From a virus, in the IMG/VR virus record IMGVR_UViG_3300012953_000015, positions 64,001 through 128,000 of that record: 64,000 nt of DNA; one strand, written 5' to 3'. Position numbers and translations under genes: made by a program. Below are positions 1,195 through 21,280 of this stretch, one piece after another. The stretch's first letter is position 1. Each line of letters begins with the position of its first letter. The notes beneath the pieces were generated by a model. The model had not been told where the DNA came from. It was given only the letters and a program-made list of their open reading frames with translations, and did no database searches.

Positions 1195-3168
1195 ATGAGT
1201 TTTTCATTAAGTCAGTTGACGGAAGGTATCAAGGCACGTAATGTTGGCCAGGGTAACCGTCGACTGTTAGAAAAGTGGGGTCGTACTGGCCTCCTTCGCG
1301 GCCTCGAAGGCACACATCGCGAAAACATGGCCACCCTCCTGGAAAACCAGGCTGGGCAGGTCCTTCGAGAGGCTTCATCTCTCGGTGGTGACGGCGCTGG
1401 ATCTGATATCCGTGGTTTCACCAACATCGCATTCCCAATCGTTCGTCGTGTATTCGGTGGATTGATTGCTAACGAGCTTGTGTCAATCCAGCCGATGAGC
1501 CTTCCTTCTGGTCTGCTCTTCTACCTCGATTACACATACGGTACCGACGTCGGTGGTGACATCGGAACATCTGAGGCTGCATACAGCAAGGGTGATTCGA
1601 TCTACGGTTCACCTGTTAACCCGGGTCGTGGCAACGATGGCGCTGACGCTGTAGGCGGTCAGTATGACTTAGCTGGTACTGGTTATTCAAAGGCACGAGT
1701 TGAAAAGGAAGCAGTTCAGCTTCCAGAAACAGCTCTTAACGCGGGTGGTGGTACTCAGCAGGCTGCTGCATTACTCAAGCTTGGTGCTTTTGGAGCTAAT
1801 GATGCATGGTCAGGTAAGCCTACTGGTGCCAATAAGCCAGCTCTTTTGACGGCTTCTGGTCAGGACTTACGTCTCGTAGACTTCGATCCACAGATTATCG
1901 CTGAGATTGAAGCTGGCGAAGAGTATGCTGCTCTTTTTATCCCATGGTCAACAGGAAACTTTCCTAACTTTGACGCAAGACAGGTTAAAGAGATTACCAT
2001 CAACGCAACTCAGGTTACCGGTTTCGGTGCAGTTCCTGCAACAATCCAGGGTGGTTCTGCAGTTGCTAACGTTAAGCGTTTGAACAGGATTGTCAAGTCT
2101 GATGCAAATGCCGCTCCATTTTCTGGTAAGTCGAGTGCACCAGCAACTGAAGGTGCAGCCGGTCCTATCGATATGGCAGCCGCCGCAGCTACTCACTTCT
2201 TGCTCATGGTCGTTAAGATCAGCGGTACAGTTGCTAATAACCAGCTCACATCTGCTGATACAGCAGCAACTGTCTCGGTTATAGACGTCAGTGGTGTTAA
2301 GGGAGCTACTACAAGCGCTGATGACCTTTCAACAGTTGTTTCACCAGCTTTTGAGTCAGACTTCGCAATCGATGCTGGTGACATTCCAGAGATTGACATC
2401 AAGATTGAGTCAGTATCTGTTGTTGCTCAGACCCGTAAGTTACGCGCTAAGTGGTCACCAGAACTCGCACAGGACTTGAATGCATACCACAGCCTTGACG
2501 CTGAGGTTGAGCTTACTCAGATTCTTTCTGAGCAGGTTGCACTCGAGATTGACCGTGAGATTCTTGGAGACCTTCTCGGAGAGGCTGGCGCAGCTAACTT
2601 CTTCTGGAGCCGTTCACCTGGTAACTTCGTTAACAAGAGAACTGGTGCTGCTATTTCTCGTGGTTCTTCACTTCGCCCTGGACCAGCTTTCACTGGTACA
2701 GTTCGTGAGTGGTATGAGACTCTCGTTGAGACCATCATCGATGTTTCCAATGAGATTCACAGAAAGACGCTCCGTGGTTCTGGTAACTTCATGGTTGTTA
2801 GCCCTGAGGTTGCTACCGTTCTTGAAGCTAGCGTTCTTTACAAGCCAGCTCTTTCCCTCGATGGTGAAGGCCAGGTTGCAATGCCAATGGCTCTTGGAGC
2901 TGAGAAGGTTGGTACCCTTTCAAGCCGTTTCACGGTTTACAAGGACCCATACTTTCCTCGTAACAAGATCCTTGTTGGATTCAAGGGCAGCAGCTACTTA
3001 GAGACAGGATATGTTTACGCTCCGTACGTACCATTGATCGTCACTCCAACTATTTTTGCTCCAGAGGATTTCACCCCAAGAAAGGGTGTCATGACTCGTT
3101 ACGGTAAGAAGATGGTTCGTGCTGACTTCTACGGTACTGTTACATGCTTAGACATGGACATTATCTAA
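1195..3168 (+). CDS. gp23: Major capsid protein, T4 gp23 family, with a large Ala/Gly/Thr-rich insertion
   Basis: Motifs LLENQ, PIVRRVF..LIANELVSIQPM, TRKLRAKWSPELAQDLNAYH, EIDREI, YAPYVPL, FTPRKGVMTRYG; SD AAGGAG. Confidence 0.95.
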   Translation: MSFSLSQLTEGIKARNVGQGNRRLLEKWGRTGLLRGLEGTHRENMATLLENQAGQVLREASSLGGDGAGSDIRGFTNIAFPIVRRVFGGLIANELVSIQPMSLPSGLLFYLDYTYGTDVGGDIGTSEAAYSKGDSIYGSPVNPGRGNDGADAVGGQYDLAGTGYSKARVEKEAVQLPETALNAGGGTQQAAALLKLGAFGANDAWSGKPTGANKPALLTASGQDLRLVDFDPQIIAEIEAGEEYAALFIPWSTGNFPNFDARQVKEITINATQVTGFGAVPATIQGGSAVANVKRLNRIVKSDANAAPFSGKSSAPATEGAAGPIDMAAAAATHFLLMVVKISGTVANNQLTSADTAATVSVIDVSGVKGATTSADDLSTVVSPAFESDFAIDAGDIPEIDIKIESVSVVAQTRKLRAKWSPELAQDLNAYHSLDAEVELTQILSEQVALEIDREILGDLLGEAGAANFFWSRSPGNFVNKRTGAAISRGSSLRPGPAFTGTVREWYETLVETIIDVSNEIHRKTLRGSGNFMVVSPEVATVLEASVLYKPALSLDGEGQVAMPMALGAEKVGTLSSRFTVYKDPYFPRNKILVGFKGSSYLETGYVYAPYVPLIVTPTIFAPEDFTPRKGVMTRYGKKMVRADFYGTVTCLDMDII

Positions 3169-3279: not shown

Positions 3280-4842
3280 ATGAAACTCACTGAACTCTAC
3301 GGATACAAACCTCGAAAGAATAATAAGTTAAAAGAAAACAAAAAGCGCCTTAGCTTAGTTAATTTGCTATTTGAAGACGAATCTTTGAAGAAGCAAATCA
3401 AAGCTGTTGATGCTAAGCCAATTACGCTTGTTGTTCTTTACGGCCCTCCTGCTGCCGGTAAAGGAGCTGCTAAGAAAGCTATTGGCGACTTTATTGGATC
3501 AAATGACGAGCAAAATTTTGAAGACTATCTAGACACCCTCACCGATGACGGCGCTTCGCAATTTCAAGAAGAAGATGCCGCAATGACTGATGTCACTAGC
3601 AAAGCTTTAGCTCCCGCAGTTTATAATGAGATTGAAGCAAGAGTCGACAAAGGCGAGTCTTTCGAAGACGTTATTGGTGATTATTTCCATGTTAACGAAA
3701 AGGGAGTTAAGTTTGAACTTAGTTCTATTCTCAGTAAGTCAGCTTTCGAAAAGATCAAAGATGGAGGTGGTTCAGACGAGTTTGCTAAATTCCCAAACAC
3801 AAAAGCATTCTTTACGCAAGCTCGCGGGTTCTCAAAGACCATCGACGGTTTAAGCGATGACATCAATAAGATGCTCGGACCAAATGATGGTAACCCGACT
3901 TTAGGCTTGAGAGCTGGCGCTGCCGCTCGCTACCTTGGGGATATCAAGAAAGAAATGATGTCGATGATGTCTGGCGTTAAAGAAGTTGGTTCAACTGCTT
4001 ACGCTAGCGTCTATCTTGCTGATCAAGCAGGAGAGTCAACAGCAAATACAGATCGAATATCACAGCTTGGCAAATTAAAGGGTGATGAAGATTTTGCAGG
4101 TTTAAAGATCATTGGTATCTATATCCATCAACCAGCTGACAGAACTCGTATAGCAAACCTCCACAGAGCCTCAACAGGTGGCCGACGAGTAGCTCAATCA
4201 GAAGTTGACCGCATCTTTGCCGCTAGTCCTGAAATTGATGCTAATGGAAACATTACTAAAAAAGGCCCGGCACTTGAAGCCATGGAATCAGCTGGATTTG
4301 ATCAAATCCACTTATACTATCCACCTAATCCGTTTGATCCCGAAGGTGTTAAAGTTGATGGCCAAGAAATCGGTAACGCGATTTGCGAGCCACTTGGTTC
4401 TGGAAAAGGTCATTTAGACATTGAGGGCTGCGAAGATGAAGCGGATGGGCCAAAAACAGGCGCGCGGTCCCTTGCCGGTATGGAAAAATACGCAGCAAAG
4501 AGAGCTAACGTAGATGACGAACGAGTTGAGAAAGCTGGTGGTGGTTTACCTGATGATCTTTCTAACGAAGAAAAAGAGAAAGTTGTTGCCGCATTTGAGA
4601 AGATGAAGTTTAGTGGAGTATCTGTAGCCGATTTAGATAAATACATGAGCAAGATTAAACCACCAAAGATTCGTGGAGCAACGAAGCATGGTCAAGTCCC
4701 ATGGAAAGATGATCTTTTTGGTGATGGCACCAACCCAACCGAAAAAGTGACAATAAAAGATGAGTCAGCTAGAACTCGTAAGACAAAAGGCGATGTTCTC
4801 CTCGAACGTTGGTTGAAGAACGCTGGTCTATTAAACGATTAA
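3280..4842 (+). CDS. P-loop kinase-like (zeta-toxin-like) protein, probably virion-associated
   Basis: Walker A VVLYGPPAAGKG; RASTGGRRVAQSEV resembles the RxxxGGHxV motif of zeta-like kinases; C-terminal ERWLKNAGLL. Confidence 0.6.
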   Translation: MKLTELYGYKPRKNNKLKENKKRLSLVNLLFEDESLKKQIKAVDAKPITLVVLYGPPAAGKGAAKKAIGDFIGSNDEQNFEDYLDTLTDDGASQFQEEDAAMTDVTSKALAPAVYNEIEARVDKGESFEDVIGDYFHVNEKGVKFELSSILSKSAFEKIKDGGGSDEFAKFPNTKAFFTQARGFSKTIDGLSDDINKMLGPNDGNPTLGLRAGAAARYLGDIKKEMMSMMSGVKEVGSTAYASVYLADQAGESTANTDRISQLGKLKGDEDFAGLKIIGIYIHQPADRTRIANLHRASTGGRRVAQSEVDRIFAASPEIDANGNITKKGPALEAMESAGFDQIHLYYPPNPFDPEGVKVDGQEIGNAICEPLGSGKGHLDIEGCEDEADGPKTGARSLAGMEKYAAKRANVDDERVEKAGGGLPDDLSNEEKEKVVAAFEKMKFSGVSVADLDKYMSKIKPPKIRGATKHGQVPWKDDLFGDGTNPTEKVTIKDESARTRKTKGDVLLERWLKNAGLLND

Positions 4843-4899: not shown

Positions 4900-5196
4900 A
4901 TGGCTACAACAAGGACAAAAAAAACAGCTGGAGCTTCAAAGCCAGCTGCGACGAAGACTGCTGCTAAACCAGCCCCGGCAAAGAATGCTGAATTAGACAA
5001 ACTCTCAAAGAGGGTTACTCAACTTGAAAAGCAAGTTGCAGCCCTAGAATCAGCCCCAGCCCCAGTTGCAACCGACAAGGGTTTAAGGCAAGAATTAGTA
5101 AACTTGCGTAATCAATTTCAGCAAGTTGCCACTATATTGCATGAACAAACCGACTCAAGGGTTGTTTCGAAATTAATAAGGCGCCTTTTTCAGTAG
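4900..5196 (+). CDS. Hypothetical protein (basic Ala/Lys N-terminus plus coiled coil)
   Basis: ORF with SD GAGGAG in the structural module. Confidence 0.6.
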   Translation: MATTRTKKTAGASKPAATKTAAKPAPAKNAELDKLSKRVTQLEKQVAALESAPAPVATDKGLRQELVNLRNQFQQVATILHEQTDSRVVSKLIRRLFQ

Positions 5197-5224: not shown

Positions 5225-5231
5225 ATAATTA
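5225..5231 (+). promoter_or_regulatory. Putative phage late promoter ATANTTA (one of about 10 copies)
   Basis: The same motif precedes structural genes at 3242, 5964, 7650, 10800, 19256, 21011, 21305, and also occurs at 35264 and 43754. Confidence 0.6.
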
Positions 5232-5236
5232 TTAAC

Positions 5237-5311
5237 AGGCCCGGTCCATTATAATCACTTGACACCCACGAGGGATCGGAATCATTGGGAGCAAAGGAGA
5301 AAGATTATGCC
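5237..5311 (+). ncRNA. Structured cis-regulatory 5' leader RNA, copy 1 (double pseudoknot)
   Basis: P1 CCGGTCC/GGATCGG, P2 CTTG/CGAG, PK1 CCCA/TGGG, PK2 TAATC/GATTA, GGC/GCC; covaries with copy 2. Confidence 0.75.
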
Positions 5312-5885
5312 AAAAGTAACGCTTACTGCCGCGAAAGGACTTGTGCAAGAGACAGGTAGCGGCACAATTTCAACCCCTATGGGGATTATCGCACCGCAAC
5401 TAAATAAGACAGCTGTTGCCGGTGGAGGTGCTTTCGCCCCCTTGGCGCTTGTAGCAAATACTCACTACTTGGTAGGAGGCTCACTAAATAACTCAGCACT
5501 CACTGTACCCGCTGGTTCCCCAGGAGACGTTATTATTATTGAGCACACAACCGAAACCGCTGGTGAGCTTACAGTTGCTAACGGGCAAGCTGTTTCTATA
5601 ACTTGCGATGCATCTCAAGTTTCTTTTTCTGCGAACAGTTCTCTAAAAGCGATCGTAACCGCTGCGACAAACGGAGCTGCTCTTCTTGGCATGGCTCTTG
5701 ATGCTATCACTGCGAATGGCACCAACGACAATGTTTTAACCTTGACCGGTGCCACCAATGCCGGTCCTGGAATGGGTACTTACATTTGTTTGACAAGAGA
5801 GGCGACTCTTTGGCGTATTGAGGGTTGGATCTGGGGCTCAGGCGCTCAGACCGGTAACGCACTTGCAACGGCTGCATTTAGCTGA
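5307..5885 (+). CDS. Putative capsid decoration/fibre protein, paralogue A
   Basis: Start refined to the ATG after SD AAAGGAG; N-terminus MPKVTLTAAKGLVQETGSG is shared with the next two genes; Gly/Ala/Thr-rich, beta-type composition. Confidence 0.6.
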   Translation: MPKVTLTAAKGLVQETGSGTISTPMGIIAPQLNKTAVAGGGAFAPLALVANTHYLVGGSLNNSALTVPAGSPGDVIIIEHTTETAGELTVANGQAVSITCDASQVSFSANSSLKAIVTAATNGAALLGMALDAITANGTNDNVLTLTGATNAGPGMGTYICLTREATLWRIEGWIWGSGAQTGNALATAAFS

Positions 5886-5910
5886 TACCTAAAATAAGAC
5901 AAACTTTGTT

Positions 5911-5940
5911 AAACCGCGCCTAGACGGCGCGGTTTTTATT
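5911..5940 (+). terminator. Rho-independent terminator
   Basis: AAACCGCGCC-TAGAC-GGCGCGGTTT plus T-rich tail. Confidence 0.9.
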
Positions 5941-5975
5941 TATTGTAAATTCAATATTTATCTATAATTATTAGT

Positions 5976-6050
5976 AGGCCCGCATCATTTTGATCAGCTG
6001 ACCCTGCCAGCGATGTGGAATCTTGCAGACAAAAGGAGAAAGATCATGCC
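5976..6050 (+). ncRNA. Structured cis-regulatory 5' leader RNA, copy 2 (double pseudoknot)
   Basis: P1 CCGCATC/GATGTGG, P2 GCTG/CAGC, PK1 CTGC/GCAG, PK2 TGATC/GATCA, GGC/GCC; gap-free alignment to copy 1. Confidence 0.75.
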
Positions 6051-6441
6051 AAACGTAACTTATAGCGGTACACAGGGTATCGTTCAATCATCAGGTACTG
6101 GCGGTTTTACCGTTCAGGGAGTCGGGATCGCACTCGACGTTGAAACAATCACAGGCATTGCTGACGACAATACCACACTCAAGGCTTACGGAGTTTCTAA
6201 GGTTGCAACCGACAACAACGGTAACCGAGAAGTAACCGTTGAGAATCCAGTTGATGTAACTGGTGCAGCCGGCCAGACAAAGCTAATCGTTAAGACAGAC
6301 GGTAACAACGAGGTTGCAGTCAGGTCAGTTGCAACTAACGCAGCCGGCTTGGTTGGTGACAGCCTTAACAACGCTAACGATTATATCTTGTTGATGTGGA
6401 CTGGAACTGACTGGGTTTGCGTAGCGGATGCAACAGCATAA
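6046..6441 (+). CDS. Putative capsid decoration/fibre protein, paralogue B
   Basis: MPNVTYSGTQGIVQSSGTG N-terminus; C-terminal LLMWTGTDW; SD AAAGGAG. Confidence 0.6.
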   Translation: MPNVTYSGTQGIVQSSGTGGFTVQGVGIALDVETITGIADDNTTLKAYGVSKVATDNNGNREVTVENPVDVTGAAGQTKLIVKTDGNNEVAVRSVATNAAGLVGDSLNNANDYILLMWTGTDWVCVADATA

Positions 6442-6458: not shown

Positions 6459-7601
6459 ATGGCTATTCAAGCAAAATATACTCCTACAGCAGGACTACAA
6501 CAAAATAAAGTTGTTGGTAAAATGACAGGTACTTTAGATCTTACCGCTGATGTTGTTTTAACAAATACGGGATTTGGAGAGGAAGCAAAAACTTTTACTT
6601 TGGAAGTAATTGCAGATGCTGCTAACCCGGGTGCCACAGTATTGGCAGCTTTTACCGGTACTCAATCTGCTGTTATTTTAACCATTACCCCAAACAATGG
6701 CGATAACAACGGAAACACTGACGTTGATCTCACAACAGCCCAAATTGCTGAGCTTATTAACTACGGATCAGTTGATGGCGTGGATGTAACATTAACAGAT
6801 GACTTGGGATTGAGAACTTTGCAAAGTGCAGAGGGCGGTGGAGCTCAGCCGGTTGTAAATGCTGGTGAGGGCGATAGCGTAACTGCAACATTTTCTGGCA
6901 CTCACTTAACAGAATTTCATGTTTCAGGTGTTGGAGTCTCGTCAGACCTTGAGACAGTAACCGCGCAGCGAGTAACAATTCAAGCTGTTGCTTCTAATGA
7001 CAATGCTGCAGGAACTTCTTTTCGCCTTACTAACGGTGATGGAGTTGAAACAAGGTTTTTCGTACAGATAGCTGGCGCTCCTGCTCTACCATCTGGTCAT
7101 GTAGCTTTAAATGAGGATGCTGGTGAAAACGTAGCAAATACTGCCACAACTTTGGCGGGTCAAATTAATGCAGTATCAGGTTTCTCAGCTTCTGCTGATG
7201 GAGGCGGATTAATTACTGTTATAAATGATAAGACTGGAGTTTCAGCTCTACCTGTTCAAGGAACATCAACGCTAGTTATATCTGTAACAAAAGCAGGCTC
7301 TGGCACCAATGGTGGAGTTATTAAAACAACCGGCGTTACTATCATCGATGCTATCGCTAATACTGAAATGACTTTAGGGGATTTGACAGCTGCTCAAATT
7401 GGTACAATGAAGTTGATTAAGAGGGCTACTGCTGCTCAAGCAGGAGCTAACGCTGATGTAACGATTGCATCTCACGACGGTGGTGCCGCCGAAGAGAAGC
7501 GTTTTGGAGATGGTCAGCAAGCAACTTTGATCTGGCTAGGCACTCAATGGGCGGATATTGCTCGAGCTGGAGCAAATAGAAATTCTGCTACCGAACCTTA
7601 A
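6459..7601 (+). CDS. Putative decoration/fibre protein, paralogue C, with two inserted domains
   Basis: Blocks colinear with paralogue B (FHVSGVGVSSDLETVT vs FTVQGVGIALDVETIT; GTMKLIK vs GQTKLIV; LIWLGTQW vs LMWTGTDW). Confidence 0.6.
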   Translation: MAIQAKYTPTAGLQQNKVVGKMTGTLDLTADVVLTNTGFGEEAKTFTLEVIADAANPGATVLAAFTGTQSAVILTITPNNGDNNGNTDVDLTTAQIAELINYGSVDGVDVTLTDDLGLRTLQSAEGGGAQPVVNAGEGDSVTATFSGTHLTEFHVSGVGVSSDLETVTAQRVTIQAVASNDNAAGTSFRLTNGDGVETRFFVQIAGAPALPSGHVALNEDAGENVANTATTLAGQINAVSGFSASADGGGLITVINDKTGVSALPVQGTSTLVISVTKAGSGTNGGVIKTTGVTIIDAIANTEMTLGDLTAAQIGTMKLIKRATAAQAGANADVTIASHDGGAAEEKRFGDGQQATLIWLGTQWADIARAGANRNSATEP

Positions 7602-7627
7602 TTAGAAAATTTCTAATTTAATATCTT

Positions 7628-7678
7628 AAGACATTCTCACTTCTATTCCATATTTAGTTTAGGAGTGAGATATGTCTT
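7628..7678 (+). promoter_or_regulatory. RBS/start-codon-sequestering hairpin with the late promoter motif in its loop
   Basis: AAGACAT+TCTCACTTCTA pairs with TAGGAGTGAGA+ATGTCTT; ATATTTA at 7650-7656 lies in the loop. Confidence 0.7.
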
Positions 7679-8835
7679 CATTTAAAGAAACCCTCAGACC
7701 AACGCCGTTTGGATTTTTCGATGCAGATCCGATTTTTTCATCGGAAGCAGATTCAATGGTGACCTTTGTCAAACGTAAGCTTGGCGATGATATTTTATCA
7801 GTAGAATTAACAAAAAAACAAATTTGGTCGTGCTTTGAAGAATCTTTTTTAGAGTACGGTAGAATCGTTCTAGAAGCTCATGGAAAGTCTCAGTTGACTA
7901 ACTTATTAGGTATCCCAACTGGATCGCTTTCTGGTGCCGAAGCCTTACACCCAAGACAGAATCTAGAGTTTGCTTTAAGAGCAGCTGAGCCTTACGCTGG
8001 AGAAGCAGGCGTTGGAGGATCTTATTCGGTTTTTTCTGGTTCTATTGATATGAAGACAGAAGTTCAAGATTACGACATTTATGAAACCCTTAAAGATGGG
8101 AATGGCGACTTAGTCGTAAGCAGTAGTTTAAACTCTCCAAGAACTAAGTTAAAAATATTAGAAGTTTGCCATTTTTCTCCACAAAATGCATATAGATTCT
8201 TTGATACAACTTCCGCTATCAATTATTTGAATAACGAATTTAGTTTTGAATCTTTCACTCCGGAAACTGTCTTTTATGTTTTACCGGTTTTTGAAGATAT
8301 TTTGCGCGCCGGCCAAATGGATATATCTAACAGGATCAGAAGATCAAACTATTCTTATAAGATTATGGGAGGGAAGCTTAGGATATATCCTATTCCTCAA
8401 AAAGATAAAAAGCTTTGGATAAAATTTTCCTATGCGCCCGACCCTATAAATCCACAAGTTAAAGATGAAACTATATACGGAGTTTCAAATCTTTCAAACG
8501 TTCCTTTTGGAAATTTAAATTATTCTAAAGTTAATGAAATAGGAAGACAGTGGGTTAGGCAATATTCCTTAGCATTATCTAAAGAGCTTTTAGGATTAAT
8601 TCGTTCAAAGTTTTCTTCTGTTCCGCTTCCTGACGGAGATTTAAGCCTCAACGGCTCTGATTTGATATCGCAAGGAAGAGAAGATCAAAGTAGCTTAAGA
8701 GATAAAATGGTTGAACTATTAGATACCTTATCTTATGGTAATTTACTAAAGTCAGAAGCTGAATCTGCTGAAGCTATACAAACAGTTTTAAAATCAGTTC
8801 CTATACCACTTGGCAAAGCGATTACTCTAGGGTAA
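7672..8835 (+). CDS. Neck/head-tail adaptor protein (T4 gp13-like)
   Basis: RKLGDDILSVELT N-terminus; WVRQYSLALSKELLGLIRSKFS...LNG C-terminus as in gp13-like proteins; synteny. Confidence 0.75.
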   Translation: MSSFKETLRPTPFGFFDADPIFSSEADSMVTFVKRKLGDDILSVELTKKQIWSCFEESFLEYGRIVLEAHGKSQLTNLLGIPTGSLSGAEALHPRQNLEFALRAAEPYAGEAGVGGSYSVFSGSIDMKTEVQDYDIYETLKDGNGDLVVSSSLNSPRTKLKILEVCHFSPQNAYRFFDTTSAINYLNNEFSFESFTPETVFYVLPVFEDILRAGQMDISNRIRRSNYSYKIMGGKLRIYPIPQKDKKLWIKFSYAPDPINPQVKDETIYGVSNLSNVPFGNLNYSKVNEIGRQWVRQYSLALSKELLGLIRSKFSSVPLPDGDLSLNGSDLISQGREDQSSLRDKMVELLDTLSYGNLLKSEAESAEAIQTVLKSVPIPLGKAITLG

Positions 8836-10846: not shown

Positions 10847-13800
10847 ATGGCAGAGCAGACATTCAGATCACCAGGATTTTTTGAAAGAGAAATAGACCTA
10901 GCATCAAGGCAACAGGCAGTTTCAGGGGTACCTGGGGGATTAATTGGTACTTCACTCAAGGGACCAGCATTCGTACCTGTTACGATTGGGGATTTTGCGG
11001 ATTTCGTAAATCGCTTTGGTAGCTTAGATTCAACTCGACCGGCATCATACGCGGCATTTGAGTTCTTGAAGAAAAAAAGAGCCTTGACTTTTATGAGAGT
11101 TTTAGGCGCCGGCGCAAACCAGACGGCAGCTGATAGATCAGCCACTCTTTCAAAGGGAATTGTAAAAGGAGCTGGTTTTAGAGTTCATGGTAAGCAAACC
11201 ACGATTAACAGGAAGAATATCGCACATTCAGATGATTCAGAGACTTTTACATCTGTCTCTGTTTTAGATGGTGCTCCTTTCTTAATTACTGGTCAGCATA
11301 AAACAGATGTTCACGGCAAGTCTCTTTGGGCAGCAAACACTCACCCAGTTTTAAATGACAACCCAAGTTTCAATGCCGATGGATACGCTTCAATGTTACG
11401 TGGTGTTGTTTATACCGCAGCTGGATACAGACTCTCAGCTATGGGAGTTGGCGATACATATACATATGGTTCTCTTGATCCAGCTGGCGATGATGCTAAA
11501 GCAGCAACTCAAACTCCAGTCGCAGCTGATGCTAATGGCGGTTTAGTTTTTAACAACAACCTCGCTAACGTCAACGCCGGTATCTCGATGGGTGTAAACT
11601 ATACTGGCGCTGACGTTACTGTTTATACAGCAACGATATTCATGCCAGCTGCAGTTTCAGGCCACTCCGGCGGTGATACAACATATACGATAAATTTTCA
11701 AATCGGATCAGCTGCCGGAGACGAAGCTCCAGCCGTGGCAGGAAATGCAACGACGATAAACTTCGCCATGAATAATGGCGCAACAGCCGATCCTTTTGCA
11801 AAGACCCTTTCGACAGGTGCTCTAGCAGACCAATTAATCTCAATAATCAATGGTACTTTCGCTGGCGGTAGATTCACAGTCGCTGGTGGTTCACTAATTA
11901 CCGCCGGTGGAGATACAACTCTTAACGGTATTAAGAATTTAGTAGCTACAAAGACTAACGATACTGGCGTAAAGCTGGAGGTTCAAGTCAAGGGACAATC
12001 CGGTAACTCAGCAACCATAACGTTCACCAAGCCAGCTGGCGCTTTTAATGCCACTGCTCCAGCTTTGACAGCTTTCTTTGGTGCCGGTGCACCAGCCATG
12101 GCTTTTAGTGGTGGTGATGGTGATGCAGCTACGATGCTCCAGACCGATGGTCTAGTTAATTTGATGGATGCAGCAAACACAATCACAAGTCAGACATTTA
12201 AGTTGCTTCTTATTGGCAAAGATTCTCAGTCTAGCGTCCACCGAACAATTACAGCAAGTTTAGATCCTGAGCATCCCGCTTATATTTCAAAGGTTCTTAA
12301 CACCGATCCTAATCAGTTCACATCTCAAAAGCATCTTCTCTATTTAGATCTTCCAGTTGAAGATGAGGTTGCTCCAGCAGCAAAAGTTTTAGTTGCTCCA
12401 CCTTCTAATCAAGCTATTGGAGATTCTCCTTTCGCTGGAGAGTACGGAAAAGCTTGGTCGTTATTAGGCAGATTAGATACTAGATACAAAACAGCTAGAA
12501 CGCCTTCGATCATTAGCCAGCCTTTTGGTTCAAAAGAGTTTGATCTTTTCCATTTTGAAGCGCTTTCGGATGGTGAGTCTGGAAATGAAGAAGTTAAAGT
12601 CTCTATTGCTAACCTCAAAGCTAGTTTGGATCCAAAAAATAAATTTGGAACATTCGATGTACTAGTCAGAAGATTTAGAGATTTAGATCTTGAACCAGAA
12701 GTTCTAGAAGCTTATCCAGCATGTTCACTCGATCCGGATAGCGAGCAGTTTATTGCTCGAGTGATTGGTGATTATAAGGCACAATATAATTTTGATGCTG
12801 ATTTAGAAGAAGAAAGAAGAGTAGTTGTCAGTGGAAAATACCCAAATCGATCTCTCTACGTTAGAGTAAGGTTGAGCGGAATGTATGAAAGCGGAGAAGT
12901 TCCGGATTCTGCTCTTCCGTTCGGCTTCAGAGGAATTCCAGTTCTTAAGACTTCGGAATCTCTTACAGATTCTGCATTAGTTGCTCTAAAAGATGGTTCT
13001 GATATTTTAGGTAATGCATTTGGTTCAGCAGCTGATTTAATCACTGGAGATAAGACAAGAATCGACACTAGCATCTTAATTGATGAAACAAATCGAAGAG
13101 ATGCATCTTTAGCTTCTCCAGTCTTTCCTCCTCTTCCTTATAGATATAAGGTTACTCGTGGACAAATGATGTCAGGATCTCAAGTTCCTTCTGGGCATCC
13201 AGCTTTAACTGAAAAAGTTGAATCTAAACTTTATTGGGGATTGAAATCTGAAAGGGTTCCATTGACTGGTTCAACTTCTTATTCTATTCTTAACCCTAAT
13301 GCTGGTGGTGTATTTAACGAGCTCATTCATGGCTACACTAAATTTCAAGGTTTAGTTGAGTCTGGTGCTTTACTCACCGGTTCAGCAGTTGATGCTTTTA
13401 ATTCTAACAAATTTACTTTGGCGAAAGTTGCTCTGAACATTACTGGATCTGATCCACTCAATATTGCTAGCAACATAACTGGCTCAGCAAGAGATCACAT
13501 GCTCGAAGCTGTTTATTTAAGAGACGCTAAGGTAGAAGGAAGTAGTTACATTGTAACAGATCCCGCTGGTCCAGTTGGCCGAGTAACTATGGCAACCCTA
13601 GTTTCTTCTTCATCAATTAAGTTTAACAGGTTTACAGTATACAACAAATTTACTGTACCGTTGTACGGAGGTTTTGATGGAGTAAACATGCTAGATTCTG
13701 ATATGAGAAGGTTGAATGATAGAGCTAGCTCAGCCGATGCTCCTCCAGGATTTTTTGGTAAAGCATCAACGGAATTTGATACAAACTTTACGCAGTTAAC

Positions 13801-14755
13801 AGGACTGTACGAAGGTAAGCCAGGAATTGGCCAAAGAAATAGCACAGTTATAACATATAGAGAAGCTGCTAATATTATGACTGACCCAATGACAGTAAGT
13901 CACAACATTCTTGCAATCCCGGGGATAAAAGATTCCTTTGTTACAGATCATACAGCTGATTTAACAAAAGAATATTCGTTAGCAATTTATCTAATGGATA
14001 TTCCTTCTTTTTCTGAAGGAAACACACGATTATTTGGAACTGAAGACAGAACAGCTTTCGTATCTGGTTCAGTTTCATCTCCGGATGTTAGGGAAACAGC
14101 AGAACAATTTTCTTCAAGAGCAGTAGACAATAACTACTCAGCAGCTTATTTTCCAGATATAGTTATAGCTGACGAAGTTAACTCTACTCGAGTTAAAGTC
14201 CCAGCCTCAGTTGCTGCAATGAAGGCTTTATCATTTAGCGATTCTGTTTCTTTCCCATGGTTTGCACCAGCTGGATTTAATCGTGGCGCTTTAGATAACG
14301 TAACTAACGTCGATGTAAGATTGACCGCCGGAGACAGAGACGAACTTTATGATGCTCGAATCAATCCTATCGCAAATTTCCCTGATGGTGGAATTGTTAT
14401 CTTCGGCCAAAAGACGCTACAGATGGCTAAGTCTGCTCTTGATAGAGTAAACGTAAGAAGAATGCTTCTAGAAGTCAAGAGGCTGATTACAAGAATCGCG
14501 CAGAGATTACTATTTGAACCAAACAATTCTGAAACTAGAGCAAGGTTCATTAATTTAGTAACACCTCTCTTGACAACGGTACAAGCTCAAGCTGGTATCG
14601 ATAGTTTTAAGATTGTGATGGATGATACAAACAACTCAACAGAAGATGTTGAAAACAATCGCCTGAACGGTAGAATAGTTGTTGTACCAACTAGGGCAAT
14701 TGAGTTTATCGCGATAGATTTTATAATTACTAATAGCGGAATCTCATTTGAATAA
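10847..14755 (+). CDS. gp18: Tail sheath protein 1 (gp18 family)
   Basis: SPGFFEREIDL N-terminus; PWFAPAGFNRG, LYDARINPI, GQKTLQ, LDRVNVRR, PTRAIEFIAIDF. Confidence 0.93.
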   Translation: MAEQTFRSPGFFEREIDLASRQQAVSGVPGGLIGTSLKGPAFVPVTIGDFADFVNRFGSLDSTRPASYAAFEFLKKKRALTFMRVLGAGANQTAADRSATLSKGIVKGAGFRVHGKQTTINRKNIAHSDDSETFTSVSVLDGAPFLITGQHKTDVHGKSLWAANTHPVLNDNPSFNADGYASMLRGVVYTAAGYRLSAMGVGDTYTYGSLDPAGDDAKAATQTPVAADANGGLVFNNNLANVNAGISMGVNYTGADVTVYTATIFMPAAVSGHSGGDTTYTINFQIGSAAGDEAPAVAGNATTINFAMNNGATADPFAKTLSTGALADQLISIINGTFAGGRFTVAGGSLITAGGDTTLNGIKNLVATKTNDTGVKLEVQVKGQSGNSATITFTKPAGAFNATAPALTAFFGAGAPAMAFSGGDGDAATMLQTDGLVNLMDAANTITSQTFKLLLIGKDSQSSVHRTITASLDPEHPAYISKVLNTDPNQFTSQKHLLYLDLPVEDEVAPAAKVLVAPPSNQAIGDSPFAGEYGKAWSLLGRLDTRYKTARTPSIISQPFGSKEFDLFHFEALSDGESGNEEVKVSIANLKASLDPKNKFGTFDVLVRRFRDLDLEPEVLEAYPACSLDPDSEQFIARVIGDYKAQYNFDADLEEERRVVVSGKYPNRSLYVRVRLSGMYESGEVPDSALPFGFRGIPVLKTSESLTDSALVALKDGSDILGNAFGSAADLITGDKTRIDTSILIDETNRRDASLASPVFPPLPYRYKVTRGQMMSGSQVPSGHPALTEKVESKLYWGLKSERVPLTGSTSYSILNPNAGGVFNELIHGYTKFQGLVESGALLTGSAVDAFNSNKFTLAKVALNITGSDPLNIASNITGSARDHMLEAVYLRDAKVEGSSYIVTDPAGPVGRVTMATLVSSSSIKFNRFTVYNKFTVPLYGGFDGVNMLDSDMRRLNDRASSADAPPGFFGKASTEFDTNFTQLTGLYEGKPGIGQRNSTVITYREAANIMTDPMTVSHNILAIPGIKDSFVTDHTADLTKEYSLAIYLMDIPSFSEGNTRLFGTEDRTAFVSGSVSSPDVRETAEQFSSRAVDNNYSAAYFPDIVIADEVNSTRVKVPASVAAMKALSFSDSVSFPWFAPAGFNRGALDNVTNVDVRLTAGDRDELYDARINPIANFPDGGIVIFGQKTLQMAKSALDRVNVRRMLLEVKRLITRIAQRLLFEPNNSETRARFINLVTPLLTTVQAQAGIDSFKIVMDDTNNSTEDVENNRLNGRIVVVPTRAIEFIAIDFIITNSGISFE

Positions 14756-14780
14756 GGTAAAAAACAGGAGAAATTAACAG

Positions 14781-17700
14781 ATGGCAGAATTGACATTTAA
14801 AAGTCCAGGGGTAAGTACTCGAGAAATCGACCTTTCAGGCCCATCAAGAACCGGTCCGGTTGGGACTCCAGCCGGCGTAATCGGTACTGCAACAAAGGGT
14901 AGAGCTTTTGTACCCTTAGTTTTTGCTAACCTCTCAGAGTTCGTTGCTGAGTTTGGCTCAGTAGGTTCTGACAAGTTCGGCCCTATGGCATTGAGAGAAT
15001 GGTTTACGAATGCTCGAGCAGGTCTTTATCTTAAGGTCCTTGGGGCTGGAGACGGAAAAGCTAGGTTAGACTCTTTTACTTCTGCAAATGCTAAAGGTGA
15101 AAGACAGCAAGCCGGTTCAGTTTTGAATGCTGGTTTCATTGTTGGAGAAAGGCAAGTTGATCCAGGGACTGGTCGATTAGCTCATAACCCATATGCTGGT
15201 AGCAACGTCGCTCCTGTACAAGCTGTCGGTAAGATTACATTTGGTGGAGTCGGAACAGCTGGTCACATGATTACCCTTACTTCAACTGGCGGAGTCGTAA
15301 AGACATATAAGTTTGTTAATGAAGCAACTTCAGAGACGGGTAACTTAGATGGAACCGCAGTCAAAGTTTCGATCCAGGGAGGCGGCGATGCAGCCTCGAT
15401 GGCTGACCAACTCCAAGACGCGATCAATAATGCGACAAACGGACATGGTTCAGAAGCAGCTGCAACTCGCTTAGTAGCCTCTGCCGTTGATGGAGAAGAT
15501 GCTCAAGTTGCATTAACACAAGCCGCTGGTCAAGCTGGTAATATTAAAATTAGATCACATCAGGCCGCCGTTACTGGTACAGCAGCTGCTAATGTTACCA
15601 TAACTACAGATTTTACCGCTGGAGTTGATGGTCAAGGTGCTCCTGGACAAACTCATGTTCTTGGCTGCTTAATGAGGGAAGTTGCTCACGCTAAAGCGAA
15701 GACAACTATTACAGTTTCTACTCACGGCTCAGCTCTTGCTCCAGCTGGTGGTGACTTCACTAAAATCGTCGGTAAAGGAATTACCTTAACTTCTACTGAC
15801 GGAACAACGAAGCAGTATGTTATTGTTGATAACGCTACAGCCGATAAAGATCCAGTAGCTGGAGGAAATCAAGCTTTCGTTACAGGCGATTTAATTGAAG
15901 CAGCTGATGTTTTAGGAACAGCCGTTACAGTTACATCTACTGATTCGCGAATCGGCGCAGTTGCAGTTGCTATTCCAAACGTAACGTCATCCACCCAGCA
16001 GACTTTATTAGCTCAATTGCTTACTGCTATTAATAGTAGCAATGGCCATAATGCCGGTACAAGCGCAGCAAACTCTACTAAGATAAAAGCGCTTAATGCA
16101 GTAAACGGAACTCTTACTCTAGATCAAGTCAAGTTTGGTCGATCGGGAAACACTGATGTAGTTACCGATATTACATTGTCGGTAGTTACTGTTGGTACTG
16201 CTTTCACTGGTGGTCTCGGAGAGCTTATTTTCCAAGAATCAGGTGTTGGTCTAGATGCAGCAACTCCAGCGACAGGAGTTAAATTCGCTCCAGTTGCAAG
16301 AGGCATATTAATGTTTGCTTCAGGCGTTGTTCCTTCGATGTCGTCTTCAAGAGCTTCGGTATCAAATAACACTGCAATCGGTCAAAGAGCTTCTGAAGAT
16401 TCAAAGAAAGCTACTGCGACAATTACATTGAACGGCGAGATTGCTGCCGGTAAAAAATTCATCTTAGTCGATGCCGCTGGAGTGACTCAAACTTACACTG
16501 CTGGTGCTAACGATCCTGCAAACGGTGCCTTCGATAGAGATGGTGGCAATACCGTTAATGCGGCTTCGATTGCAGGGTGTATTAACCAGGGTGGCGGTCG
16601 AACAATTGGAATAACTGCAGTAGCCACCGGTGCTGTTATCAAGTTGACGCAAGATGCTGCAGGGGTCGCAGGAAATACTGTCATCTTAAGCGATTTAGAT
16701 ACAGCTACGGTATCAGGCGCTTCAGGAACTACTCTACCAGGATTCTTCTCTGGTGGCACAACATCAGTAGCAAGAGTTTCTGCAAATTCTTCTAGGACTT
16801 TCGGAACACTTGAAGGACTAGATAATGGTGGATCAGCTCTTGGTGCAATTGATGTAAAAGACAGCAAACAAGAATTTGTCATGCTTCTTAACGGCCACAA
16901 ACCAACTGGAGCGTATCCAAATGCCCTTACAGCTTCATTTGATCCGCAAGCAACAAATTACTTTGCTAATATACTCAATACAAACCCAGAAGCTTTACAG
17001 GAAGCTGGACACCTTCTTTATACTCACTATGATGTCTTCAGTTCTTATGCTATCCCAGCTGGTACAGACAATCCTTATTTATCTGCTGCAGAGCGAGCTG
17101 CGAATAGCGGAAAATCTGGGCTAACTAACAATACTCAAGAACTAAGAGAAGTTGGATTCTTGATGAGATCACAGTGGGATAGAAATGTTTCAGCTGTTGC
17201 ATATCCAAGCTTAGAAGATTTCTCAGACCGTTTCAGAACTGCAGTTTCTCCAACTATAAGATCACAGAAGTTCGGTGGAGAATCTCAAGATTTATTTAAG
17301 GTTCACTCTTTAGATGATGGATCAGGCGGAAATGCTGAATATAAGATTACTATAGAGAATATCAAGCGTTCTCAAAGCGAAAAAGATAGGTATGGACAGT
17401 TTGATTTGGTTGTTAGAGATTTCAATGACAACGATAGAGAACCAGTTGCTTTAGAAAGATTCTCAGCTCTTTCATTAAACCCTCAATCTGATCGATATAT
17501 CTGCAGGATTATTGGCGATTATAGATTGTTTTATGATTTTGATAAGCGCCCAGGTTCACAAAAGGTTTCATTGACAGGAAAGCACCCTAATGTATCTAAT
17601 TACATCAGGATTGAAGCCTCTACTGCTGTTGATGAGAAGACAATCGACCCGACTGCCCTTCCGTTTGGGTTTAGGGGAGTTCCTAGATTATCTATCAATG

Positions 17701-19247
17701 GAGAGGTTTCTGGTATGTCTCTCTTTTCCGATCCGGATACTTCTAGTGCTTCTTCTATCATTGATTCTACTAACAAAGCTCATGTCAACTTCAGGTTACC
17801 TCCAGTTCCTTTGAGAAGGCATGTAGGCGTTGGCGTTATACCAAAGAGAAGATCAAATTCAGCTTTCTGTTGGGGAATCCAGTTTGAAGCTGACGATGCG
17901 TACTCAGAATCAAATAAGAACTCTGGTCACGCTTCGATGATGCCTTCACTCACCAAATATCTTCCGGATTATGTAACTAACGCCATGAAGCTGCTTGTGA
18001 GAAATGATGCTACGTCTGATAGCAACAATAACAACGAATTTAGCCTCGAAAATATTCAAGTTATTACAAATGCTTCCGATAAGCCTGATTCAAAAGAGTG
18101 GGCAGCAGCTTTATACAGGAGAGGTGGAACTGTTTCGAAAGCTATTGTTGATGTTGATGGAAACCCAGCTGCTACGTCTAGGATGTTAAATTCTACTACT
18201 GATTTAGATTTAGGTTCTGTTAGAAGATTCCTTAAATTTACTACATATGTTCAGGGTGGATTTGATGGTGTCAATATTTTCGATAGACAAAAAGCAGCAC
18301 TTTCAGATGTAGCTGTTAAGAGAGAAATAGATTATCCTGAAGACCAAGGAGGCAAAGCTGGTTCCACTGCGGCAACTTATCTTAAAGCTATAGATGTTTT
18401 AGCTGAGAAGAGCGATGTAGACATTCAGCTTTTAGCGATACCGGGAATAAGACAAACTCTCGTAACTGATAAAGCTATTGAAGCGGTCGAAGACAGGTTC
18501 GATGCTATGTATCTAATGGATACTATAGTTTACGATTCTGATAACTTGCCAATCACTGGTTCAGATCAGAAAGTAAGCGTGACAAACACAGTTAGCAGAT
18601 TTAGCAACAGAGTCTTGGATACAAGTTTTGCAGCTGCGTATTTTCCAGACGTTATATTGCAAGATCCTAGTACAGGAACAAATGTTCAAGCTCCTCCCTC
18701 AGTAGCAGTTTTAGGAGCTTTTTCTCTTAATGACCAGCTAGCTCACCCATGGTTTGCTCCTGCTGGTTTTACAAGAGGCGCTATGGCTAATGTTTTAGAA
18801 ACTCAAGTTAAACTAAATCGAGACAACCTCGATGCTCTTTACGATGCAGATATAAATCCTATTACTTCTTTCCCACATTCTGAAGGAGTTATAGTTTTTG
18901 GTCAGAAAACTTTGCTGAGGACTCAAAGTTCTCTTGATAGAGTTAATGTTCGTAGGCTTCTTATAGAAATAAGAAGAAGAGTAAGGGCTGTTGCAAATAA
19001 TTTTATATTTGAGCCAAACAGAGAAGAAACTTTGGCGAGGTTCTCAGCGTCGGTCAACCCAATACTGCGACAGATTCAGCAGCAGCAGGGTGTCGATAGG
19101 TTCCTCGTTAGAATTGATACTTCTACAACGACTCAAACCGATGTAGAAAATAATACATTAAGGGGCAAGATATTCTTGCAACCAACACGTTCAGTTGAAT
19201 TTATTTCACTTGACTTTGTTATTACAAATGCAGGTGCAGAAATCTAA
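14781..19247 (+). CDS. gp18: Tail sheath protein 2 (gp18 family) with three inserted repeat modules
   Basis: SPGVSTREIDL; PWFAPAGFTRG, GQKTL, LDRVNVRR, PTRSVEFISLDF. Confidence 0.93.
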   Translation: MAELTFKSPGVSTREIDLSGPSRTGPVGTPAGVIGTATKGRAFVPLVFANLSEFVAEFGSVGSDKFGPMALREWFTNARAGLYLKVLGAGDGKARLDSFTSANAKGERQQAGSVLNAGFIVGERQVDPGTGRLAHNPYAGSNVAPVQAVGKITFGGVGTAGHMITLTSTGGVVKTYKFVNEATSETGNLDGTAVKVSIQGGGDAASMADQLQDAINNATNGHGSEAAATRLVASAVDGEDAQVALTQAAGQAGNIKIRSHQAAVTGTAAANVTITTDFTAGVDGQGAPGQTHVLGCLMREVAHAKAKTTITVSTHGSALAPAGGDFTKIVGKGITLTSTDGTTKQYVIVDNATADKDPVAGGNQAFVTGDLIEAADVLGTAVTVTSTDSRIGAVAVAIPNVTSSTQQTLLAQLLTAINSSNGHNAGTSAANSTKIKALNAVNGTLTLDQVKFGRSGNTDVVTDITLSVVTVGTAFTGGLGELIFQESGVGLDAATPATGVKFAPVARGILMFASGVVPSMSSSRASVSNNTAIGQRASEDSKKATATITLNGEIAAGKKFILVDAAGVTQTYTAGANDPANGAFDRDGGNTVNAASIAGCINQGGGRTIGITAVATGAVIKLTQDAAGVAGNTVILSDLDTATVSGASGTTLPGFFSGGTTSVARVSANSSRTFGTLEGLDNGGSALGAIDVKDSKQEFVMLLNGHKPTGAYPNALTASFDPQATNYFANILNTNPEALQEAGHLLYTHYDVFSSYAIPAGTDNPYLSAAERAANSGKSGLTNNTQELREVGFLMRSQWDRNVSAVAYPSLEDFSDRFRTAVSPTIRSQKFGGESQDLFKVHSLDDGSGGNAEYKITIENIKRSQSEKDRYGQFDLVVRDFNDNDREPVALERFSALSLNPQSDRYICRIIGDYRLFYDFDKRPGSQKVSLTGKHPNVSNYIRIEASTAVDEKTIDPTALPFGFRGVPRLSINGEVSGMSLFSDPDTSSASSIIDSTNKAHVNFRLPPVPLRRHVGVGVIPKRRSNSAFCWGIQFEADDAYSESNKNSGHASMMPSLTKYLPDYVTNAMKLLVRNDATSDSNNNNEFSLENIQVITNASDKPDSKEWAAALYRRGGTVSKAIVDVDGNPAATSRMLNSTTDLDLGSVRRFLKFTTYVQGGFDGVNIFDRQKAALSDVAVKREIDYPEDQGGKAGSTAATYLKAIDVLAEKSDVDIQLLAIPGIRQTLVTDKAIEAVEDRFDAMYLMDTIVYDSDNLPITGSDQKVSVTNTVSRFSNRVLDTSFAAAYFPDVILQDPSTGTNVQAPPSVAVLGAFSLNDQLAHPWFAPAGFTRGAMANVLETQVKLNRDNLDALYDADINPITSFPHSEGVIVFGQKTLLRTQSSLDRVNVRRLLIEIRRRVRAVANNFIFEPNREETLARFSASVNPILRQIQQQQGVDRFLVRIDTSTTTQTDVENNTLRGKIFLQPTRSVEFISLDFVITNAGAEI

Positions 19248-21022: not shown

Positions 21023-21280
21023 ATGCTTAACGAAATAAAATGGAAAGATTTTTTTGCTGATTGCGCTTTATACATCATGAGCGAGCAGGATACATTTAAA
21101 TTAAATGGCGAAAAAGAAATCGTAAATGTCATTGCAGAAAACATTTCAGTTTCTAGAAAGCTTTATAACTCTCTTTGTTCTGAGGCTACGGATATAGAGG
21201 AAATTAAGACTATTATAATTAAAAAGAAAAGAGCATCGAAGATGTTCTTTGAGTCTACCGGCATCCAGTGGCCTTTTTAA
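21023..21280 (+). CDS. Hypothetical protein, probably leaderless
   Basis: ATG 5 nt after ATAATTA, no SD. Confidence 0.55.
   Translation: MLNEIKWKDFFADCALYIMSEQDTFKLNGEKEIVNVIAENISVSRKLYNSLCSEATDIEEIKTIIIKKKRASKMFFESTGIQWPF

Follow-up and report, generated by a model that had tools for sequence, protein, structure and literature searches.

A conserved double-pseudoknot leader RNA over the translation start region of virion-type genes in uncultured large phages

Introduction

The preQ1-II/III and SAM-II riboswitches are pseudoknots that sequester the ribosome-binding site. In phage T4, gene 32 has one H-type pseudoknot upstream of its ribosome-binding site, and the early/late hairpins masking the ribosome-binding sites of genes e, soc and 49 contain the late start, which removes the hairpin from the late mRNA. 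HDV-like ribozymes have a P1.1 helix of 1-2 bp located directly after the 3' strand of P1. To our knowledge, few conserved structured RNAs with a regulatory role are specific to DNA phages, and hardly any of them control virion structural genes.

The S4 and S15 pseudoknot operators act by entrapment; in the E. coli alpha-operon (rpsM)/uS4 and rpsO/uS15 operators, the ribosome-binding region of the first cistron is part of a 5'-leader pseudoknot, and the Shine-Dalgarno (SD) sequence may stay accessible while initiation is blocked (PMC10931766). Translational feedback in phages is represented by T4 gp32 with its pseudoknot operator (PMC10690425) and by the P22 scaffolding protein, the N-terminus of which is implicated in translational autoregulation (10.1101/2022.12.13.520362). 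In HDV-like ribozymes, G1 is the first base of P1 at the cleavage site (PMC10879173).

Here we analyze a leader RNA found twice in a 64,000-nt stretch of a virus record (IMG/VR IMGVR_UViG_3300012953_000015, positions 64,001 to 128,000; hereafter, the window). By analogy, it would work most like the alpha-operon and rpsO operators: it too is a pseudoknot in a 5' leader, extends into the ribosome-binding region of the first cistron and leaves the SD mostly free. It differs from them in having no shared sequence family or Rfam match, in preceding genes of phage virion proteins rather than of RNA-binding ribosomal proteins, and in a masking helix that slides from -11 to +14 among variants. With preQ1-II/III and SAM-II it shares a compact 5' leader, an invariant core and a pseudoknot helix that covers the initiation region, but it masks the AUG or the spacer more often than the SD, has no metabolic gene context and is so far confined to phages. 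The T4 gene 32 operator and P22 scaffolding autoregulation are cases of phage translational feedback, as proposed here for the leader, yet neither has its fold or gene context. The T4 early/late hairpins likewise place structure over the initiation region beside a late promoter, whereas the promoter motif and putative start of the leader lie upstream of the whole fold.

Results

The locus and the two leader copies

The window belongs to a linear virus record of 143 kb with an estimated completeness of 52%. A Gp23-type major capsid protein is encoded at positions 1195-3168 of the window, and since its nearest relatives in GenBank are less than 50% identical, the source is an uncultured large T4-like phage. 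Both leader copies are located 3' of the capsid gene, each with its own promoter-like motif upstream, and a covariance-model search of the whole record found these two copies only. Directly after the capsid gene, positions 3280-4842 encode a 520-aa P-loop protein with no match in Pfam or PHROG. Immediately 5' of the first copy, positions 4900-5196 encode a 98-aa K/A-rich protein, half of which is coiled-coil-like; small genes of similar make-up frequently flank the leader in relatives. At 10847-19247, two long tail-sheath-like genes, of 1302 and 1488 aa, stand in tandem, and their ribosome-binding regions resemble each other.

The ungapped alignment of 5237-5311 with 5976-6050 noted in the original prediction was reproduced when both copies were rechecked. 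Copy 1 (5237-5311, plus strand; covariance-model score 84.9 bits) begins with the putative +1 A of an ARGC motif (5237-5240), followed by helices P1 (5241-5247/5273-5279), P2 (5250-5256/5303-5309; pseudoknot 2, PK2, of the original prediction), P3 (5258-5261/5269-5272; the 4-bp stem previously named P2) and pseudoknot 1 (PK1, 5265-5268/5286-5289), with an invariant linker at 5280-5285, the SD at 5295-5299 and the AUG at 5307-5309. In copy 2 (5976-6050, plus strand; 83.8 bits) the respective elements are P1 (5980-5986/6012-6018), P2 (5991-5995/6042-6046), P3 (5997-6000/6008-6011), PK1 (6004-6007/6025-6028), the linker (6019-6024), the SD (6034-6038) and the AUG (6046-6048). A recount from the sequence gave the same totals of compensatory changes between the copies as had been claimed, nine double and two single ones: three double and one single in P1, two double and one single in P3, three double in PK1 and one double in P2.

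The duplicated unit extends about 37 nt into the promoter region (repeat D6, 5200-5263/5939-6002, 80% identical), and the two units are separated by an intrinsic-terminator-like hairpin with a 10-bp stem and a T run (5911-5935, plus strand). One strong copy was found in 26 of 44 related phage records and two strong copies in none of the 44, which indicates that the duplication is local. Nested folding recovers P1 and P3, and the z-scores of the nested-only minimum free energy (MFE), +1.07 and +0.60, are not significant, as expected since pseudoknots are not modelled, which makes this measure uninformative for such folds. A very stable hairpin at 7620-7690 buries the SD and AUG of a 387-aa neck-type gene (MFE -23.2 kcal/mol, z -5.7); it carries a promoter-like motif in its loop, which is the T4 early/late design, unlike the double-pseudoknot leader.

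The late-promoter-like motifs (family consensus ATAnnTA) are located on the plus strand at 5225-5231, assigned by the position in homologues and the ATG offset of SD-less genes, and at 5964-5970, assigned by repeat comparison and the position in homologues. In agreement with the original prediction, ATAATTA ends 5 nt before the first A of both copies, the same offset as that of the ATG in three SD-less genes. Two of these are short ORFs at 21023 and 35276 of the window, with the ATG 5 nt after ATAATTA and no SD, and are candidate leaderless late genes; the third is located outside the window in the same genome. Among 136 homologues found without the motif as a query, 123 have an ATAnnTA-type motif at -12 to -6; position -1 is always a pyrimidine and position +1 is A in 99% (a Y-1/A+1 initiator). 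The motif offset and this signature support the proposal that the fold begins at the transcript +1, which would place the transcription start at the first A. Four related large phages (L403-L406) each encode a sigma70-like factor of about 240-260 aa, a candidate reader of ATAnnTA.

Homologues of the leader

The first loci were fetched around related capsid genes without reference to the RNA, and about 30 copies were already present there. Pattern scans of viral and metagenome contigs together with two covariance models yielded the variant set. This search, which the original prediction had proposed for phage metagenomes, identified a family of at least 184 distinct variants. A subtype represented by L001:4908-5005, L057:14062-14158 and about 20 similar loci has a G.A pair closing P3 and two bulged nucleotides ahead of P1; its leaders are always long, and its P2 is always on the AUG.

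A pattern scan of GTDB genomes, which covers the short-leader subtype only, gave four pattern matches, none of which scored with the covariance model. Among cultured phages there was no match at the DNA or the protein level. The window has no match in Rfam 15 at the gathering score, in keeping with the earlier impression that the element fits no familiar consensus; there was none over the element itself at E<=10 and none for 11 diverse homologues at E<=1, with riboswitches, ribozymes, Alpha_RBS, the S15 leader and orphan motifs all within the scope of the search. We found no description of the family in the literature; it may be among the 8,495 unnamed candidate RNAs mined from IMG/VR by Fremin et al. 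(PMC10690425). The leader is a conserved RNA family without an Rfam entry and is so far restricted to phages.

Covariation and the core fold

In 55 aligned sequences, 99.2% of the cells in P1, P3 and PK1 were paired, and 13 of the 15 pairs were doubly changed. None of 500 shuffles reached the observed pairing, and slid controls were 24-48% paired, which rules out chance as an explanation of the fold. When 102 sequences were tested against a null that takes the tree into account, proposed pairs made up 11 of the 12 best-scoring column pairs; they came from all four helices (E<=0.03), and each had undergone several independent double changes. The original prediction had staked the structure on covariation in homologues, and this covariation is significant in all four helices under our null, which approximates R-scape with 60 simulations. 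Because the search descriptor itself demanded pairing, PK1 was counted separately in matches from a sequence-only pattern and was fully Watson-Crick in 97 of 98 of them.

Across the 184 variants, the invariant or nearly invariant positions are A1, G3, C4, the two basal C-G pairs of P1, the G and A with which the loop opens, and AA-C-U of the linker. The GC-rich core holds about ten invariant bases that are unpaired, and these converge at the P1/PK1/L3 junction; the GC content of P1, P3 and PK1 is 68-82%, compared with 31% for P2. A fifth helix between the 5' GGC and the GCC of ATGCC, also part of the original prediction, did not hold up: it has no covariation, 49 of 184 variants carry an A.C mismatch in it, and it is lost if codon 2 is not Pro; the complementarity is explained by the Met-Pro codons. 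An irregular extension pairing A1 and G3 with the U and C of the linker is possible; these bases are invariant, and the flanking positions are mostly mismatched.

The masking helix and the start of translation

In nearly all variants a single base separates the 5' strand of P2 from P3. The partner of this strand lies between -11 and +14 in all 184 variants, always inside the ribosome footprint: it covers the AUG in 140, the end of the SD or the spacer in 37 and early codons (2-5) in seven, including short variants without AGGAG. Between PK1 and the AUG the leader measures 11 to 42 nt, depending on the variant, and the distance of the P2 partner follows this length with a slope of 1.09 (r 0.95). 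As the P2 register was picked by pairing, P2 rests also on a control with swapped strands, in which 5-bp pairing was found in 13% of non-cognate combinations, compared with 93% of cognate ones. The stacking strength of P2 is moderate, about -7.8 +/- 1.9 kcal/mol, and correlates with SD strength (r 0.56).

That the 3' strand of P2 tracks the AUG and not the core is the strongest evidence for action on translation initiation. What selection maintains is the placement of P2 on the region of initiation, not a constant site within the fold. The original prediction, a translational control element that pairs over the start of translation, is supported by the position of P2 in every variant. By analogy with the entrapment by S4 and S15, it is quite probable that P2 lowers initiation while leaving the SD mostly open.

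Genes downstream of the leader

The gene after copy 1 (5307-5885, plus strand) encodes a 192-aa protein predicted to consist of an N-terminal anchor hairpin and a beta-sandwich of the type found in T4 gp9/gp10, TSP4 and capsid spikes (AlphaFold pLDDT 76.8). Its model is similar to a phage baseplate protein (9f4a; VIA Z 9.1, rmsd 2.5, 105 aligned), to TSP4 (VIA Z 7.8) and to the Pa223 capsid spike (VIA Z 6.8). The 131-aa protein encoded after copy 2 (6046-6441, plus strand; pLDDT 84.8) has the same anchor and a diverged body with the same predicted beta-sandwich fold; its model resembles tailspike domains (VIA Z 10.7 and 10.4, rmsd 3.0 and 2.5, about 90 aligned) and the Pa223 capsid spike (VIA Z 8.1), and its Atlas neighbours carry T4_gp9_10_N. 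A third gene (380 aa, 6459-7601, plus strand), which has a degenerate anchor and no leader of its own, begins 17 nt after the second one; a terminator was looked for between them and not found, and the third gene is probably co-transcribed from copy 2. The proteins downstream of the leaders have no match in Pfam or PHROG. The spike/baseplate beta-sandwich fold of both modelled proteins agrees with the prediction that virion genes stand downstream. By fold, the products would be virion surface proteins; their location on the capsid is suggested by gene position, and the earlier term 'decoration proteins' likewise reflects the predicted fold and the position after the capsid gene.

The anchor is an N-terminal 20-aa beta-hairpin, MPK..GL.Q..G.G. 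It begins the protein directly downstream in 173 of 184 variants, two of these being truncated; each of the remaining 11 leaders is followed by a K/R-rich low-complexity gene and then by an anchor gene. An anchor-family gene is present in the leader-headed operon in every case with readable sequence, and no RNA-binding domain was recognised in the family. The bodies behind the constant anchor fall into 28 similarity clusters, and all genes downstream of leaders encode virion-type or low-complexity proteins, which suggest no ligand. Anchor genes without the RNA are mostly operon-internal paralogues, common in relatives. Nine phage records without the RNA also lack the anchor, one of them being 93% complete; fragmentary records are weak evidence of absence. 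In two phages, L052 (4165-4250) and L063 (13140-13215), anchor genes follow the promoter motif and ARGC with the knot missing, consistent with decayed or simplified leaders; the L052 leader keeps plain hairpins, one of them closing over the SD region. The presence of the leader is patchy on the capsid tree, a quick version from which negative loci with less than 3.5 kb downstream were excluded, with at least eight forced changes. The leader and the anchor thus appear to travel together as an accessory module, a linkage that plain adjacency of promoter, leader and N-terminus would also produce.

Discussion

It is very probable that the leader, conserved among large aquatic phages that are uncultured, is a new element of translation control. 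Our leading explanation, to which we give somewhat less than an even chance, is a translational OFF switch triggered by feedback from an unassembled virion protein. Transcription would start at the A of ARGC, so that the leader forms the 5' end of the late mRNA. P1, P3 and PK1 form, as covariation and conservation support, a stable GC-rich core presenting the invariant unpaired bases, and the AU-rich P2, which would stack on P3, pairs with the start codon, the spacer between it and the SD, or the first codons. With the SD usually free, the 30S subunit could dock without an initiation complex being formed. The core is most likely a binding site, and its occupancy would stabilise P2; the likeliest binder would be an unassembled virion protein, either the anchor-bearing spike-like product or its head partner, and such assembly-coupled feedback might match spike output to head number. 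We favour virion-protein feedback because the anchor family is the only constant partner of the RNA and because of the P22 scaffolding precedent. Against it, the anchor hairpin more plausibly docks on the virion and has no recognised RNA-binding domain, the linkage of RNA and anchor is also expected from physical adjacency, and L052 and L063 keep the promoter and the anchor gene with a decayed leader only. Where another gene is inserted ahead of the anchor gene (11 cases), the latter is preceded by an SD of its own, which would make its control by the leader indirect. A neighbouring basic protein was considered as a general regulator and rejected, being present within 1.5 kb in only 32 of 125 loci.

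The same core could instead bind a small molecule or ion, such as a nucleotide signal or a cation, and lock P2 over the start codon. A compact fold of 60-75 nt at +1, with the invariant unpaired bases gathered at one junction and a labile P2 beside a stable core, has the layout of a riboswitch with its expression platform. The regulated genes are virion genes with no metabolite link, none of the 27 phage records that have a match contains a copy in front of a gene for metabolism or transport, the GTDB pattern scan of the short-leader subtype gave no copy and Rfam no match, so that we consider a phage riboswitch unlikely. We regard as equally unlikely a fixed attenuator and 5'-end stabiliser that keeps translation of a low-copy virion protein constantly low from a strong late promoter, with invariant bases that are purely structural. 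No alternative ON structure is evident, P2 is only moderately strong and correlates with SD strength, and the decayed L052 leader retains a plain hairpin over the SD-AUG region, all of which fit such a device; however, a simple hairpin would suffice for it, and that four knotted helices and an invariant core have been kept throughout a deep phage clade of patchy distribution points to a surface that is recognised. It is improbable, to a greater degree, that a host or phage factor other than a virion protein, such as ribosomal protein S1 or another RNA-binding protein, opens P2 and activates late translation. S1 binds and unfolds pseudoknots (PMC10931766), the SD is mostly free and an A-rich stretch lies between PK1 and the SD, but no candidate regulator was identified; a search for RegA is uninformative here, since its control gave no match.

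A small ribozyme was among the functions originally considered, and the four covarying helices have the HDV-like order P1, P2, P3, P1.1 as a nested double pseudoknot (P1-P2-P3-P1'-P1.1'-P2'). The 7-bp P1, the 7-nt L3, the small size and the occurrence in phages are also shared with minimal and theta HDV-like ribozymes (PMC10879173). The catalytic features are absent, however. The first P1 pair is C-G in 184 of 184 variants and not G1; an invariant 6-nt linker separates P1 from the 4-bp P1.1-like PK1, which is therefore not adjacent; and there is no J4/2 catalytic cytosine, the purine-rich SD and spacer standing where P4 and J4/2 would be, with no invariant C before P2 and five variants lacking any C in the 4 nt after PK1. 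The leader is also situated at its putative transcription start, not behind a tRNA. The missing G1, adjacent P1.1 and J4/2 cytosine show that the leader does not belong to the HDV-like ribozymes. Self-cleavage by another active site, processing the mRNA 5' end, is very improbable, given that the promoter and the Y-1/A+1 signature already account for this end and that P2 tracks the AUG. We consider it somewhat doubtful, though conceivable, that the HDV-shaped scaffold without catalytic bases uses the 5'-terminal invariant bases and the junction as a pocket gating an interchangeable spike, either as a new, phage-only riboswitch class or as a virion-protein sensor.

In summary, the leader is a real and conserved RNA of the pseudoknot translational-control type that is absent from Rfam. 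It is small, has a well-resolved four-helix model from at least 184 natural variants and provides an unusual natural experiment, in which the masking helix moves with the start codon over 25 nt of register. If it is ligand-gated, it would represent a new riboswitch class; if protein-gated, a clear instance of feedback that couples the translation of accessory virion proteins to assembly; and in either case also an example of the HDV topology used without catalysis. If the invariant bases indeed form a pocket, large phages could tune the particle surface to the state of assembly or the condition of the host.
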